A DNA stretch of 64,000 nucleotides from Hyphomicrobiales bacterium (GCA_002401855.1 NVUH01000008.1:21126-85125), one strand, 5' to 3'. Positions 44,313 through 49,849 are shown, counted from the stretch's first letter. Numbers and translations are program-made. The notes: generated by a model not told the origin, from the sequence alone.

Positions 44313-44939
44313 TTATACCTTGGTGGTGCGCAAATAAGGCCTAATCTCATTCCAACCCTGCGGAAATAAATCTTTGGCCGCCTCATTGTCAATCGATGGT
44401 GGAATGATCACGTCATCACCCAGTTTCCAGTCGGCAGGGGTGGCAATGCTTTTGGCATCGGCCAATTGCAAGGCATCAATCACCCGTAAAATTTCATCAA
44501 AATTCCGCCCGACATTCATCGGATATGTCAGAGTGAGGCGAATTTTTTTATTAGGATCAATGATAAACACCGAACGCACCGCCTGAGTGGCGCTTTCTTG
44601 TGGGTGAATCATCTCATATAATTTCGCCACTTTTAAATCTGGGTCGGCAATGATCGGAAAGGTCAGCACGGTATTTTGTGTATTGTCGACATCAATAATC
44701 CATTTTTTATGCTCGTCAACCGTATCGGTCGATAAGCCAATCGGCTTTACATTACGGTTGGCAAACTCGCCTGAAAGCTGTGCTGTGCGCCCCATTTCAG
44801 TGGTGCAAACAGGGGTAAAATCAGCAGGATGGCTAAAGAAAAATGCCCAACTATCGCCTAACCATTGATGAAAATCAATCGGGCCATTGGTGGTTTCAAC
44901 GTCAAAATTTGGGGCTGTATCGCCAATTCTAATGCTCAT
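44313..44939 (-). CDS. 1-Cys peroxiredoxin (Prx6 type)
   Basis: 208 aa. The motif FSHPADFTPVCTTE contains the peroxidatic Cys. Confidence 0.9.
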   Translation of the reverse strand: MSIRIGDTAPNFDVETTNGPIDFHQWLGDSWAFFFSHPADFTPVCTTEMGRTAQLSGEFANRNVKPIGLSTDTVDEHKKWIIDVDNTQNTVLTFPIIADPDLKVAKLYEMIHPQESATQAVRSVFIIDPNKKIRLTLTYPMNVGRNFDEILRVIDALQLADAKSIATPADWKLGDDVIIPPSIDNEAAKDLFPQGWNEIRPYLRTTKV

Positions 44940-45066
44940 TTCAGTCTCCTTGGTTTATTGTTGTATATTAGATAAAACTAATATATATCTAGTGTAACAG
45001 AATTACAATATGTAGGTGCAGGCAAATTGTCACGTCTACCCCCCACATGAATATGAAACGAATTAT

Positions 45067-45732
45067 ATGTCCCCAAATTGGATAGAACAATTTCAAGGCC
45101 TCGCCAGCTTAGATGCATCCATTAAAAGCTTAATGACACAGAAAAGCAACATTATTTCTTACGCAAAAAATAGTGTCATTTTTGGCTCTGGCAAAGCGCC
45201 AGATCATTTTTTATTATTGTTGGAAGGCACAGTGCGGGTGCAACAGCTGTCAGAAGCGGGGCGCGAAATTGTGCTTTACCGCGTGCATGCAGGCCAATCT
45301 TGCGTGCTGACCACGGCTTGTTTGCTGGCTTATGAAGATTATGCCGCCGAAGGCATTGCCGAATCCGAGGTCAAAGCGATGGCCTTACCGCGTGTGGTTT
45401 TTAATCAGCTCATCGCGCAATCAGATGAGTTTAGACGCTTTGTATTTTCGGCCTATTCACGCCGCATGACCGATTTATTCGCGGTGATTGAGGATATTGC
45501 GTTCCAACGGATGGACATTCGCTTGGCGCAAAAATTACTCGAATTGGTTGATGAAGATGCACAAATCAAATCCACCCATCAAAAAATGGCCGCCGAATTG
45601 GGCTCAGCACGCGAAGTTATATCGCGCCTCTTGCAAGAATTTCAACGCCGCAATTGGATTGCCCAAAGTCGCGGGACCATAAAATTATTAAACCGAGGAG
45701 AAATTAAAAAATTAGCCACAACAAATAGTTAG
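45067..45732 (+). CDS. Crp/Fnr-family transcriptional regulator (no FNR N-terminal Cys cluster)
   Basis: A cNMP-binding-like beta-roll followed by the HTH MAAELGSAREVISRLLQEF, which carries the FNR-type E--SR recognition motif. Start set at the ATG at 45067. Confidence 0.85.
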   Translation: MSPNWIEQFQGLASLDASIKSLMTQKSNIISYAKNSVIFGSGKAPDHFLLLLEGTVRVQQLSEAGREIVLYRVHAGQSCVLTTACLLAYEDYAAEGIAESEVKAMALPRVVFNQLIAQSDEFRRFVFSAYSRRMTDLFAVIEDIAFQRMDIRLAQKLLELVDEDAQIKSTHQKMAAELGSAREVISRLLQEFQRRNWIAQSRGTIKLLNRGEIKKLATTNS

Positions 45733-45745
45733 CTAAATATCAAAT

Positions 45746-45759
45746 TTGATGCAAATCAA
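45746..45759. promoter_or_regulatory. FNR-type box TTGAT-GCAA-ATCAA
   Basis: Perfect match to TTGAT-N4-ATCAA, with extended arms AATTTGAT/ATCAAATT. It ends 90 nt upstream of the yeeE-like ATG (box 45746-45759, ATG at 45850). Confidence 0.7.
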
Positions 45760-45849
45760 ATTGTGCATAAACCGCATTTTAGTAACAATGTCACAGAAGA
45801 ATAGTTTTTCAGCCTATAAGTATGTCGAGAAAATAACTAGGAAATTATT

Positions 45850-46281
45850 ATGGAAACACTATTCACGCCCTATCAGGCACTTGGCGGCGGCGCACTTATT
45901 GGCCTCGCATCAGTCTTATTAATGTGGACACATGGCCGCATCATGGGCGCCACAGGCATTTTAGCTGGCTTTTTCACACCCACATCAGTGGCTGATTGGG
46001 GCTGGCGTGCCGCTGTCTTGCTTGGCATGATCTCTGCACCATTGGCCTATTTGTTGGTCAGCGGCAATATGCCGGCGTTCAATGTGCCGGTTAGCACAAA
46101 TATGCTGATGATAGGTGGGGTGATTGTTGGCTTTGGCGTCACATTAGGCAGTGGCTGCACATCTGGTCATGGGGTTTGTGGCATGGCACGTTTGTCCCCC
46201 CGCTCCATCGCCGCCACTTTAACATTTATGCTCACCACCGCGGTCACCGTATATATCGTGCGCCATATTCTAGGCCTCTAA
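45850..46281 (+). CDS. YeeE/YedE-family sulfur-compound transport protein (half-size)
   Basis: 143 aa, hydrophobic. The motif GSGCTSGHGVCG is typical of the family. Confidence 0.8.
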   Translation: METLFTPYQALGGGALIGLASVLLMWTHGRIMGATGILAGFFTPTSVADWGWRAAVLLGMISAPLAYLLVSGNMPAFNVPVSTNMLMIGGVIVGFGVTLGSGCTSGHGVCGMARLSPRSIAATLTFMLTTAVTVYIVRHILGL

Positions 46282-46296
46282 ACTAAGGAATGTAAA

Positions 46297-46734
46297 ATGA
46301 AAATAATCACTGCATATATTATTGGCCTGATCTTTGGCCTCGGCATTTCAATCTCGGGCATGTCCAACCCCGCCAAAGTGTTGAATTTTTTCGATGTTGC
46401 GGGCAGTTGGGATGGCAGCTTGGGTCTCGTTATGGCCGCTGCGCTCATTTTGGCCTTCATCGGCTATAAACTGGTTTTTGCTCAAAACAAACCTTTATTC
46501 GGAGCCAATTTCTTCGTCCCTGCTAACCGCAAATTAGATACAAAATTGCTGTCTGGTTCAGCTATTTTTGGCATTGGCTGGGGTATTTCTGGCTTTTGCC
46601 CTGGCGGCTCATTGCCAGCCATTGGCAATGGCAGTGTCGAGATTATCCAATTCACCATAGCGCTCATTGTCGGCATTTTCTTGGCTAAAGCTGCGCTTAA
46701 ATTAGTCGCAGTCAAAGCGATGCCCAACTCTTAA
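46297..46734 (+). CDS. YeeE/YedE-related membrane protein (second half-size partner)
   Basis: 145 aa, hydrophobic (GWGISGFCPGG). It is the usual partner ORF of the preceding gene. Confidence 0.75.
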   Translation: MKIITAYIIGLIFGLGISISGMSNPAKVLNFFDVAGSWDGSLGLVMAAALILAFIGYKLVFAQNKPLFGANFFVPANRKLDTKLLSGSAIFGIGWGISGFCPGGSLPAIGNGSVEIIQFTIALIVGIFLAKAALKLVAVKAMPNS

Positions 46735-46754
46735 TCAAACGAAGGAGAAAAAAT

Positions 46755-47639
46755 ATGTCTAACTATCCTATAAATATGGATCTCATCCCCAGCGTCGAAG
46801 CGTTTTTTGACCCTGCCACCAATACCATCAGCTATGTGGTCATCGATCCTGCCACCAAAGCTTGCGCCGTTATCGATAGCGTGATGGATATGGATTATGC
46901 GGCAGGCAAAATTACCTATGATCATGCCGATAAAATGATTGAATTTATCGAGCGCAATCAGCTTAAACTCGAATGGTTGATCGAAACCCACGTGCATGCC
47001 GATCATCTTTCAGCCGCACCTTATATACAGCAAAAATTAGGTGGCAAAATCGGCATTGGCGCCAACATCACCATCGTGCAAGAAGTTTTCGGCAAAGTGT
47101 TTAACGAAGGTACCGAGTTCCAACGTGATGGCAGCCAATTCGACAAATTATTTGTCGAAGGCGACACATATATGATTGGCGATTTACCAGTTTTTGTCAT
47201 GCACACACCAGGCCATACACCCGCATGCATGGTGCATGTGGTGGGCAATGCTGCATTTGCTGGTGATACATTATTCATGCCCGACGGCGGCTCAGCGCGT
47301 GCCGATTTCCCCGGCGGTGATGCGGCCGAGCTTTATAACAGCATTCAAAAAGTGTTGAGCTTACCCGATGATATGCGCTTATTCATGTGCCATGATTATG
47401 GTCCCAATGGCCGCGACATCGAATGGGAAACCACAGTAAAAGCTGAAAAAGCCCATAATATTCATGTCGGCGCGGGCAAAACCAAGCAAGAATTTGTCGA
47501 TTTTCGCACCAAACGCGATGCCGAACTGGCTGTGCCTAAACTAATCATCCCTTCCTTGCAAGTCAATATGCGCGCGGGCGATGTGCCGTGTGATGAAGAT
47601 GGCAACCCGATGCTTAAAGTGCCGATTAATAAATTATAA
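46755..47639 (+). CDS. MBL-fold persulfide dioxygenase (ETHE1/Blh type)
   Basis: 294 aa with the metallo-beta-lactamase motif THVHADHLS. The length and context match type II persulfide dioxygenases. Confidence 0.75.
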   Translation: MSNYPINMDLIPSVEAFFDPATNTISYVVIDPATKACAVIDSVMDMDYAAGKITYDHADKMIEFIERNQLKLEWLIETHVHADHLSAAPYIQQKLGGKIGIGANITIVQEVFGKVFNEGTEFQRDGSQFDKLFVEGDTYMIGDLPVFVMHTPGHTPACMVHVVGNAAFAGDTLFMPDGGSARADFPGGDAAELYNSIQKVLSLPDDMRLFMCHDYGPNGRDIEWETTVKAEKAHNIHVGAGKTKQEFVDFRTKRDAELAVPKLIIPSLQVNMRAGDVPCDEDGNPMLKVPINKL

Positions 47640-47653
47640 TGAGGAGCCAAATC

Positions 47654-48079
47654 ATGGACATTAAACGCCTGTCAAAGACATTATCAGTCTGCGCGCAAAT
47701 TTCACCTGATGACTTAAAGGCCGTCAAAGCTCTGGGCTTTGGCGCGATTATTTGCAACCGCCCTAATGATGAGACTACAGATCAACCAAGCTTTGAGAGA
47801 ATTGCAAAAGCCGCCGAGGCGGCTGGGTTGACAAGCAGTTACATTCCAGTTGTTGGCGGGCAGATTAGCGATGAAGATGTGGCATTGTTTGAAGCGGCAA
47901 CCGATCATCTTGCTCAGCCCATTTTGGCCTATTGCCGCACTGGCACGCGCTGCACCATATTATGGTCACTCAGCCAAGCAGGGCAACAATCTGCTGATGA
48001 CATTTTGGCCAGCGCAAAAGCCGCTGGATACGACATGTCAACACAACTTGAACGCATGAATAATAAAATCAAAAACTAA
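47654..48079 (+). CDS. DUF442 / TIGR01244-family protein (PTP-like Cys-loop domain found at the N-terminus of Blh)
   Basis: MDIKRLSKTLSVCAQISPDDL... with the loop AYCRTGTRC. The ATG at 47654 is preceded by GAGGAG. Confidence 0.7.
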   Translation: MDIKRLSKTLSVCAQISPDDLKAVKALGFGAIICNRPNDETTDQPSFERIAKAAEAAGLTSSYIPVVGGQISDEDVALFEAATDHLAQPILAYCRTGTRCTILWSLSQAGQQSADDILASAKAAGYDMSTQLERMNNKIKN

Positions 48080-48100
48080 AACCTGTTGGCAGGAATGACT

Positions 48101-49849
48101 ATGAAATTAAGCAAACTAAAATCATATTTCCCGATTTTCGATTGGGGGCAAAGCTATAATAAACACGCCTTTTCCAACGATATGATTGCTGCGGTGATTG
48201 TGACCATCATGCTCATCCCGCAATCTTTGGCCTATGCATTATTGGCTGGCTTACCTGCCGAAATGGGGCTTTATGCCTCCATCGCGCCGATCATTCTTTA
48301 CGCCATTTTCGGCACCAGCCGTGCTTTGGCAGTTGGCCCCGTGGCCGTTGTGTCGTTAATGACAGCAGCGGCGATTGGTAATATTGCCGAAGTTGGCACA
48401 ATGGGCTATGCTGTGGCCGCCATCACTTTGGCAGGGCTTTCAGGTGTTATTTTGCTACTTATGGGGGTGTTTAAACTCGGTTTCTTGGCCAATTTCCTGT
48501 CGCATCCGGTCATTGCAGGTTTCATCACCGCATCTGGTGTGCTGATCGCCGCCAGCCAACTCAAACATATTTTAGGCATCGATGCGCATGGCCATACATT
48601 GCTAGAATTATTAAGCTCACTCTTTACACATTTACCTGAGACAAATTACAAGACGTTGATCTTGGGTGTTTCAGCAACCTTATTCTTGTTCTGGGTGCGC
48701 AAGGGCTTAAAACCCGCTTTACTAAAACTTGGCCTCAGCGCCCGCATCGCCAATATTCTCACTAAAATCGGCCCTGTCGCCGCCATTGTCACCACCACAC
48801 TCATCGTTTGGGGTTATGATTTTGCCGCACAAGGCGTACGCATTGTTGGCGATGTGCCACAAGCCCTCCCGCCGCTAACTTTACCATCTTTTTCACCCGA
48901 TCTGTTAAGCACTTTGCTCATTCCCGCCCTGCTCATATCTGTCATTGGGTTTGTCGAATCCATCTCAGTCGCGCAAACTTTGGCGGCCAAAAAACGCCAA
49001 CGCATCGAGCCTAATCAAGAGCTTATCGGCCTTGGTGCTGCCAATATTGGCGCGTCTCTTACAGGCGGCTTTCCCGTCACAGGTGGTTTTTCGCGCTCGG
49101 TGGTTAATTTTGATGCAGGTGCAGAAACCCCCGCGGCGGGTGCTTTCACCGCCATTGGCTTGGCCATAGCCGCTGTCTCCCTCACCCCATTAATTTACTT
49201 TCTGCCCAAAGCCACCTTAGCTGCCACCATCATTGTTGCGGTTTTGTCATTGGTCGATTTTAGCATTCTCAAAAAAACATGGGTCTATTCAAAAACCGAT
49301 TTTGTGGCAGTTGCTACCACCATTTTACTGACGCTTATATTTGGCGTAGAAATTGGCGTTTCAACAGGCGTTATCCTATCCATCGCCCTATTCCTCTACA
49401 AAACCTCGCGCCCCCACATTGCCGAGGTTGGCCTCGTGCCCGACAGTCAACATTTCCGCAATATCAACCGCCATAAAGTCATCACCGATCCACAATTACT
49501 CACCATCCGCATTGATGAAAGCCTATATTTCGCCAACGCACGGTTTTTAGAAGATTATATTTATGATCGGGTGGTCGGCGATTGCCACATTAAGCATCTG
49601 GTTTTAATGTGTTCCGCGGTCAATGAAATAGACATGAGCGCGCTCGAATCGCTCGAGGCCATCAATACAAGGCTTGATGACTTGGGCATAAAATTACACC
49701 TGTCCGAGGTCAAAGGCCCCGTCACAGATAAATTAAAGCGCACACATTTTTGGCAAAAATTAACAGGCGAAATATTCCTATCACAATATGACGCCTATAA
49801 AAAACTAGCCCCTGATGAGGCTATCAAGAATTTCAACCACTTTATTTGA
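48101..49849 (+). CDS. SulP-family anion transporter with C-terminal STAS domain
   Basis: About 580 aa with a SulP membrane domain and a STAS tail ([15 protein letters not shown]...). The start is ambiguous (TTG 48086, ATG 48095 or ATG 48101). Confidence 0.85.

Follow-up and report, generated by a model that had tools for sequence, protein, structure and literature searches.

A 64-kb stretch of DNA from a Hyphomicrobiales bacterium with a genome of 3.08 Mb (the whole stretch is referred to here as the window) contains a gene for a Crp/Fnr-family regulator that is followed on the same strand by yeeE, yedE, persulfide dioxygenase (PDO), DUF442 and sulP genes, and the question raised by this locus is what the regulator controls, which DNA site it recognizes and which signal it perceives. 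An earlier interpretation made from the DNA alone (the sequence-only reading) had described this gene string, all members of which are indeed present, and had proposed that the regulator binds a perfect FNR-type box upstream of yeeE and senses sulfane sulfur through a pair of cysteines. Our current working hypothesis, which we favour on balance and hold with some reserve, is that the regulator is a dedicated local class II activator that acts through a different, 13-bp operator, that it probably responds to a reactive-sulfur signal at residue Cys79, and that an FnrL-type protein provides a further input upstream.

Predicted operator, promoter and linked operon

The elements on which this hypothesis principally depends are the following (TSS, transcription start site).

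45067–45732, + strand: Crp/Fnr-family regulator (REG), 221 aa, with cNMP_binding and HTH_Crp_2 domains; placed by family alignment
45782–45794, unstranded: predicted regulator operator GTAACAATGTCAC (GTAAC-AAT-GTCAC), one mismatch to the family consensus; centre at 45788, about −41
45817–45822, + strand: predicted −10 hexamer TAAGTA, with its 'TA' 29 nt from the operator centre; predicted TSS at about 45829

The operator was recognized by comparison of 80 related loci fetched from Alpha-, Beta- and Gammaproteobacteria. Downstream of the regulator gene, 73 of these loci contain the palindrome GTGAC-N3-GTCAC with at most one mismatch, and in 50 it is perfect, where about 0.016 perfect sites per locus would be expected by chance (our own estimate, assuming equal base frequencies). 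The 72 unique sites from these 73 loci yield the extended consensus tTtgGTGAC-N3-GTCACtGAag, with the 13-bp palindrome as its core. Together with its flanks, the element in the window reads TTTTAGTAACAATGTCACAGAAG, and the flanks (TTT.GT.AC...GTCAC.GAAG) match the consensus too. When the genome was scored with a position weight matrix (PWM) built from 52 orthologous sites in other genomes only, the window site being left out, the window operator ranked fourth to sixth among approximately 6.2 million positions and was the only top-ranked site confirmed as promoter-proximal. The highest-scoring match (C22:8349) lies inside an acyl-CoA-synthetase-like coding sequence and was taken as a chance occurrence. 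The operator is identical in the sister genome G001, in which the sequence just downstream has diverged and the −10 hexamer is TAAGTT, at an equal offset from the operator.

The spacing between operator and −10 element is also a property of the family. Of 62 unique orthologous promoters, 48 have a 'TA' at +29 from the middle of the palindrome, and elsewhere between +20 and +41 no offset exceeds 10%. With this phasing the operator would be centred about 41 bp upstream of the TSS. Between the regulator gene and yeeE we found neither a + strand sigma-70 promoter with both −35 and −10 elements nor a terminator. A site centred at about −41 of a promoter with a −10 element only has the predicted geometry of a class II activator. 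The regulon in the genome under study appears to be a single operon. A palindrome with operator-like half-site spacing, TGTAA-N5-TTACA, was also seen at 44993–45007, between the regulator gene and the divergent peroxiredoxin gene (prx), and is not claimed as a site; it is not conserved in G001, is absent from the top PWM matches and gives no support for autoregulation.

The genes downstream of the operator are, in order:

45850–46281, + strand: YeeE-like half-size sulfur-transport membrane protein, 143 aa (Pfam Sulf_transp)
46297–46734, + strand: DUF6691/YedE-like half-size membrane protein, 145 aa (Pfam DUF6691, 128 bits; synteny)
46755–47639, + strand: PDO of the metallo-beta-lactamase fold, ETHE1/Blh C-terminal type, 294 aa (Pfam Lactamase_B; NCBIfam bifunc_ST_SDO)
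47639–48079, + strand: stand-alone DUF442 sulfurtransferase, 146 aa (Pfam BLH_phosphatase; TIGR01244, 135 bits)
48086–49849, + strand: SulP/STAS anion permease, last gene of the operon (Pfam Sulfate_transp and STAS; TIGR00815)

The sequence-only reading had assigned control of this operon to the adjacent Crp/Fnr gene and had asked whether a neighbourhood of Crp/Fnr regulator and PDO is kept in other genomes. It is: in 66 of the 80 loci the regulator shares its locus with PDO, with or without yeeE/yedE, DUF442(-SQR) and SulP, and in most of these 66 it lies directly upstream on the same strand. The usual string is (DUF2892), (yeeE, yedE), PDO, DUF442 or a DUF442-SQR fusion, and SulP. Co-occurrence within the window's own genus points the same way. 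Among eight genomes of this genus the regulator is present in three, and the PDO type of the window (at least 83% identity) is found in exactly those three, whereas the remaining five, which lack the regulator, carry a PDO paralogue that is 47–49% identical. From the 66 loci and this co-occurrence, we consider it very probable that the operon has its dedicated, local regulator in this protein. In the one regulator-free sister genome inspected, G006 (L104, contig 2), the PDO paralogue (49% identical) is divergent from a cassette comprising a 97-aa two-Cys ArsR/BigR-like regulator, a YgaP-type rhodanese-DUF2892 fusion and TauE, and the genome under study has no cassette of this type. The occurrence of a BigR-like regulator at one PDO cassette and of a Crp/Fnr regulator at the other looks like non-orthologous displacement. 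Among the arguments from gene context, such a displacement within a single genus speaks most strongly for the view that the signal of the Crp/Fnr protein is similar in kind to that of BigR/SqrR.

Some close homologues (61–65% identity; loci L015, L027, L028, L046, L055, L060, L073 and L080) form a subgroup that has no downstream PDO operon and in which the palindrome is of a variant form, TGTGAC-N3-(C/A)TCAC. The downstream gene of locus L070 codes for a membrane protein of 407 aa that matches no Pfam family.

The TTGAT boxes and the FnrL-type protein

The box to which the sequence-only reading had assigned the regulator, a second copy of it and the gene in which that copy lies are as follows.

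45746–45759, unstranded: perfect FNR-type box TTGATGCAAATCAA (TTGAT-N4-ATCAA), centre at about −76.5 relative to the predicted TSS
44865–44878, unstranded: second perfect box TTGATGAAAATCAA, inside the prx coding sequence (codons I-D-F-H-Q), about 190 nt upstream of the regulator ATG
44313–44939, − strand: 1-Cys peroxiredoxin (prx), divergent from the regulator gene (Pfam AhpC-TSA and 1-cysPrx_C; NCBIfam PRK13189, 221 bits)

The first box, which is conserved in G001, ends 90 nt before the yeeE ATG (45850), as had been reported; from its centre to that of the downstream operator is 35.5 bp. Two perfect boxes in the window, a number reached in one of 100 shuffles, compare with an expectation of 0.18. 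The copy in prx is possibly a chance product of a conserved protein motif, or possibly an FNR site serving the divergent prx and regulator promoters.

It is the assignment of the box to the adjacent regulator that fails. The pattern TTGA-N6-TCAA is almost never found near the regulator in the 80 related loci and, with one mismatch allowed, is only about twofold above background upstream of the operator. We therefore rejected TTGAT-N4-ATCAA as the family operator, since it is essentially absent from the orthologous promoters, which carry GTGAC-N3-GTCAC instead, a copy of which is present in the window. Judged from the promoters compared, the box before yeeE is a genus-specific addition that other lineages lack. 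An FNR-like box beside a Crp/Fnr gene is thus not necessarily the site of that gene's product, and a mis-assignment of this kind is corrected here.

A different reader for the box is available. The genome encodes only two Crp/Fnr proteins, and the second (contig 40; L081 1492–2196, minus strand; 234 aa) contains a C-x2-C-x7-C motif, a central Cys and an I-E-T-V-S-R helix, and has FnrL as its best match, followed by FixK and Fnr. Perfect TTGAT-N4-ATCAA boxes number 27 genome-wide, compared with about 5.6 expected (our own estimate from base composition), and 16 are intergenic. Their targets include genes for the copper nitrite reductase NirK (TIGR02376, 507 bits), pseudoazurin and a rhodanese-like protein, as well as superoxide dismutase and coxB, the last two identified by eye and not by family search; the identical 14-mer TTGATGCAAATCAA occurs upstream of the pseudoazurin gene and of one other gene. 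Denitrification in this organism probably proceeds to NO at least. Because a true FnrL-type protein is present, together with a TTGAT regulon that includes the 14-mer of the pseudoazurin gene, the predicted reader of the box before yeeE is most likely the FnrL-type [4Fe-4S] regulator of this genome.

Cysteines, signal and alternative explanations

The regulator is a member of a large, uncharacterised Crp/Fnr clade. It matches PF00027 (E 8e-14) and PF13545 (E 1.5e-12), and its AlphaFold2 model (pLDDT 79.7) comprises a beta-roll, a helix at residues 120–160 and a helix-turn-helix; the top Foldseek matches of the model are all Crp/Fnr structures, and the best solved relative is PDB 3DV8 (hidden Markov model E 1e-32; Foldseek E 4e-16; 27% identity). 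Relatives with E<1e-30 form 404 clusters at 50% identity, the close ones (59–70% identity) come from Alpha-, Beta- and Gammaproteobacteria, and at least 594 species proved to encode a relative when one genome per species was scanned. None of the curated NCBIfam models covers the protein, the best score being 56 bits against a cut-off of 274. RedB of Rhodobacter capsulatus was considered as a possible characterised relative; a non-palindromic AT-rich 12-mer motif and an energy-metabolism regulon are reported for it (PMC9603854). Two members of the clade, P0122 (493 aa) and P0127 (482 aa), each contain two regulator-like stretches and are apparently tandem-fused Crp/Fnr units; a covalent 'dimer' of this kind would be unusual for the regulator family.

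The recognition helix A-R-E-V-I-S-R (45607–45627) has the E--SR motif that the sequence-only reading had pointed out in AREVISRLL, and in addition a CRP-type Arg preceding the Glu, which had gone unremarked; the helix reads REVISRLL in the lineage of the window and REVISRQL in most relatives. The family alignment backs the ATG start at 45067; an alternative GTG at 45016 would add one Cys. With the ATG start the protein has, as the same reading had stated, no N-terminal cysteines of the FNR type and only two cysteines in all, in a C-x5-C arrangement (GQSCVLTTAC), so that the FNR ligand set for [4Fe-4S], three N-terminal and one central Cys, is absent. The NCBIfam CRP model gives 46 bits against a cut-off of 266.

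The two cysteines are not equally conserved. Among 150 representatives of the 50%-identity clusters, which are 31–69% identical to the query, Cys79 (45301–45303) is present in 145, Cys85 (45319–45321) in 113 and both in 111, and PDB 3DV8 keeps the C-x5-C arrangement. In a sublineage consisting of P0128 and P0271–P0274, position 85 is Gly, and in P0128 and P0273 Cys79 is the sole Cys. The genes for the Gly85 proteins P0273 and P0274 lie directly before the same operon (the contig of P0274 ends within the gene after PDO), and the P0273 locus (L099) has a perfect operator, GTGACTTTGTCAC, upstream with a TA at +29. The same operon and operator in a Gly85 sublineage imply that Cys85 is dispensable in nature and that an obligatory bridge between the two residues is unlikely. 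A Cys pair that is not conserved or not needed had been named by the sequence-only reading as a ground for refutation, and this now tells against the bridge model, though not against Cys-based sensing as such. A dithiol persulfide sensor would have two conserved cysteines, which is not what is found here, and the fold is unrelated, so that the regulator would be at most an analogue of such sensors. We regard Cys79 as the candidate sensor residue.

In a profile alignment to Mycobacterium tuberculosis CRP, both cysteines fall in or next to the equivalent of the phosphate-binding cassette, the cAMP-binding Gly-Glu is replaced by Thr-Thr, and the Arg by Tyr92. Since the residues that contact cAMP are replaced, the regulator is not a cAMP receptor, and the pocket has been rebuilt around Cys79. 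The remodelled pocket, SCVLTTACLLAYEDY, is highly conserved. In the AlphaFold2 model Cys79 occupies a strand end and Cys85 is part of a helix (residues 83–90), and only that segment has a pLDDT below 50.

We hypothesize that a dimer of the regulator binds GTAAC-AAT-GTCAC at 45782–45794 and activates, in class II fashion, a promoter in which the −10 element is not accompanied by a −35 element; activation rather than repression is what we infer from this architecture. The inducer would be reactive sulfur, that is, persulfide or polysulfide made from sulfide. Within the remodelled effector pocket Cys79 would be the sensing residue, assisted by Cys85 in those proteins that have it. FnrL, as the putative reader of the TTGAT box, would add low-oxygen control, a useful arrangement given that sulfide is toxic to respiration chiefly at low oxygen. 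The enzymes of the operon would then turn persulfide or thiosulfate-derived sulfane sulfur into sulfite, in the manner of Blh (PMC5823870), and its membrane proteins would move sulfur anions.

Several observations weigh against this hypothesis. The TGA-N5-TCA spacing of the operator is one bp shorter than that of CRP and FNR sites and is unusual for the family, one half-site of the window operator has a mismatch, and the genome as a whole shows no enrichment of GTGAC-N3-GTCAC with at most one mismatch (52 sites against an expectation of about 70); the case for the window operator is made by its position, its flanks and orthology. With E--SR retained, binding of the regulator itself to the TTGAT box is conceivable, and for a class I site the box is not canonically placed, its centre being at about −76.5. 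Conservation of a Cys is by itself a weak indication in a family with a mean column identity of 72%, and the chemical nature of the inducer is taken from genomic context. Finally, a tblastn search of the genome with a type II SQR detected none, which counts against a supply of sulfane sulfur from an SQR of that type.

Four other explanations have to be set against it. The one that survives best, and that we nevertheless consider unlikely, is an ordinary ligand-binding activator of the Crp type, in which a non-covalently bound sulfur metabolite (e.g. sulfite, thiosulfate or glutathione persulfide) is recognized and Cys79 does no more than form part of the pocket wall. Small molecules are what most Crp/Fnr relatives sense in the beta-roll pocket, the pocket here is remodelled and highly conserved, Cys85 can be dispensed with, and the AlphaFold2 confidence is low exactly at residues 82–91, as for an element that is ordered by its ligand. 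However, position 79 is a near-invariant Cys (145 of 150) and not Ser or Ala, which suggests that thiol chemistry matters, and the known dedicated sensors of such operons are all thiol-based (PMC13467558).

We regard as improbable the original proposal, that the adjacent regulator itself binds TTGAT-N4-ATCAA and senses sulfane sulfur by an intramolecular tri- or tetrasulfide bridge between Cys79 and Cys85. The helix does contain E--SR, the box is perfect and conserved in G001, a shift in specificity is conceivable from REVISRLL in place of the usual REVISRQL, and both cysteines are found in 111 of the 150 relatives and in PDB 3DV8. Against this, orthologous promoters have GTGAC-N3-GTCAC and no box, the window keeps an operator phased with the −10 element, the box is shared with the regulon of a genuine FnrL-type regulator, and one sublineage that keeps the operon and a perfect operator has Gly in place of Cys85.

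Slightly less credible again is a general thiol-oxidation switch responding to oxidative or disulfide stress, of the type of Lactobacillus FLP or Desulfitobacterium CprK (PMC2610375), which provide precedents for redox-active cysteines in Crp/Fnr proteins. The recurrence of a 1-Cys peroxiredoxin as neighbour would fit such a switch, but that neighbour is only occasional, whereas the conserved regulon of PDO, DUF442-SQR, YeeE and SulP, in 66 of the 80 loci, is specific to sulfur. Least credible of all, and hardly to be entertained, is a CooA-like haem- or metal-based sensor of gas or sulfide with the Cys79 thiolate as axial or metal ligand: CooA can be detected as a relative (E 2e-5 to 3e-4), its haem ligands sit in the corresponding beta-roll region, and a single invariant Cys would suit a ligand role, but neither a conserved His nor an N-terminal Pro partner was identified and no neighbouring gene is haem-related.

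Known sulfur sensors and neighbouring genes

The hypothesis of a class II activator with Cys79 as its sensor residue has to be viewed against the regulators already described. The operon has the constituents of a Blh/bigR-type detoxification operon, namely DUF442, an ETHE1-type dioxygenase, transporters and a dedicated regulator, with split genes and with other transporters and another regulator. It thus resembles the bigR-blh systems of Xylella and Agrobacterium, controlled by BigR/SqrR, in combining a Blh-type module (DUF442 plus ETHE1-like dioxygenase) with membrane transporters; it differs in that PDO and DUF442 are separate genes and in that YeeE/YedE halves and SulP take the place of TauE. 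BigR loses its activity on exposure to H2S and polysulfides, and the Blh operon sustains respiration under hypoxia (PMC5823870); the FNR box in front of yeeE is a plausible oxygen link comparable to this need for the blh operon under hypoxia. The regulators themselves are dissimilar. BigR/SqrR has the winged-helix ArsR fold and the present protein that of Crp/Fnr, and BigR is a repressor released by oxidation of Cys42 and Cys108, whereas a class II activator with one near-invariant Cys is predicted here.

With FNR and FnrL the regulator shares its fold, domain order and E--SR helix motif, and its promoter region shares a perfect FNR box. Unlike them, it lacks both an N-terminal Cys cluster and a Cys corresponding to FNR Cys122, has a CRP-like Arg before the Glu, and belongs to a family whose operator is the 13-bp GTGAC-N3-GTCAC and not the 14-bp TTGAT-N4-ATCAA. 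PDB 3DV8 (EUBREC_1222 of Eubacterium rectale, a structural-genomics entry with no assigned function) has both the C-x5-C arrangement (DMCLLSASC) and a REVITR helix, and is of Firmicute origin. Control of a Crp/Fnr protein by thiol chemistry has a precedent in FLP of Lactobacillus casei and CprK of Desulfitobacterium, but the cysteines concerned are N-terminal and central in FLP and form the inter-domain pair Cys11-Cys200 in CprK, and the regulons are unrelated to sulfide detoxification. The cysteines of FLP are redox-active, and the spacing of its TGA...TCA site is not FNR-like. FisR, from the Cupriavidus sqr-pdo system, is likewise an activator of sulfide-oxidation genes and a listed reactive-sulfur sensor (PMC13467558); it belongs to another protein family and acts at sigma-54 promoters, unlike the predicted sigma-70-type class II promoter of the present operon.

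A recent review (2026) names dedicated reactive-sulfur sensors from the CsoR, ArsR and Fis superfamilies only (PMC13467558), and our full-text literature searches turned up no account of PDO, SQR or blh operons under a Crp/Fnr regulator, or of sulfane-sulfur sensing by such a regulator. The suggestion of the sequence-only reading that a Crp/Fnr-type reactive-sulfur sensor would be a new class is therefore borne out by the papers searched. If reactive sulfur is what is sensed, the regulator would add a fourth protein family to the known bacterial sulfur sensors and, as an activator with apparently one key Cys in the old cAMP pocket, would represent a new structural solution. It is tempting to extend this to the clade as a whole, and we put forward, as an idea that is still more doubtful than our reading of the single locus, that the proteins from at least 594 species form a fourth, unrecognised family of reactive-sulfur sensors, being class II activators that use Cys79 and a 13-bp GTGAC-N3-GTCAC operator and switch on operons for SQR, PDO, sulfurtransferase and exporter; with FnrL in the genus under study, sulfide and oxygen would be integrated at one promoter. 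The family is common in marine sulfide-oxidising heterotrophic Alphaproteobacteria (Rhodobacterales, Pseudovibrio and Thalassospira), and knowledge of the operator would allow regulons to be predicted across hundreds of genomes and metagenomes. The 13-bp operator, the TSS, the roles of Cys79 versus Cys85 and the natural Gly85 variants are all testable predictions, and cultivable hosts exist.

As regards the individual genes of the operon, homologues of the YeeE half (65–74% identical) occupy the equivalent position in 41 of the 80 loci, and SulP, mostly 63–82% identical in related loci, may be an exporter of sulfite or thiosulfate. The PDO aligns with positions 140–423 of the NCBIfam Blh model bifunc_ST_SDO (365 bits), its C-terminal half, and the DUF442 protein covers Blh positions 2–136; in Blh itself DUF442 is fused to PDO, and many related loci (e.g. 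L010 and L099) have a DUF442-SQR fusion. A small DUF2892/YgaP-like transmembrane open reading frame of about 70 aa, ending in ...FCPLY..G..TC, is the first gene after the operator in most related loci (e.g. L001, L018 and L099 1470–1679) and is absent from the operon of the window.

The peroxiredoxin is a recurrent yet only occasional neighbour of the regulator or operon across the loci; a homologue adjoins the regulator in L069 and lies downstream of SulP in the Thalassospira loci. At the other end of the operon, sulP and a convergent gene for a cytoplasmic methyl-accepting chemotaxis protein with a CZB zinc-binding domain overlap at their 3' ends by 45 nt (49805–49849).

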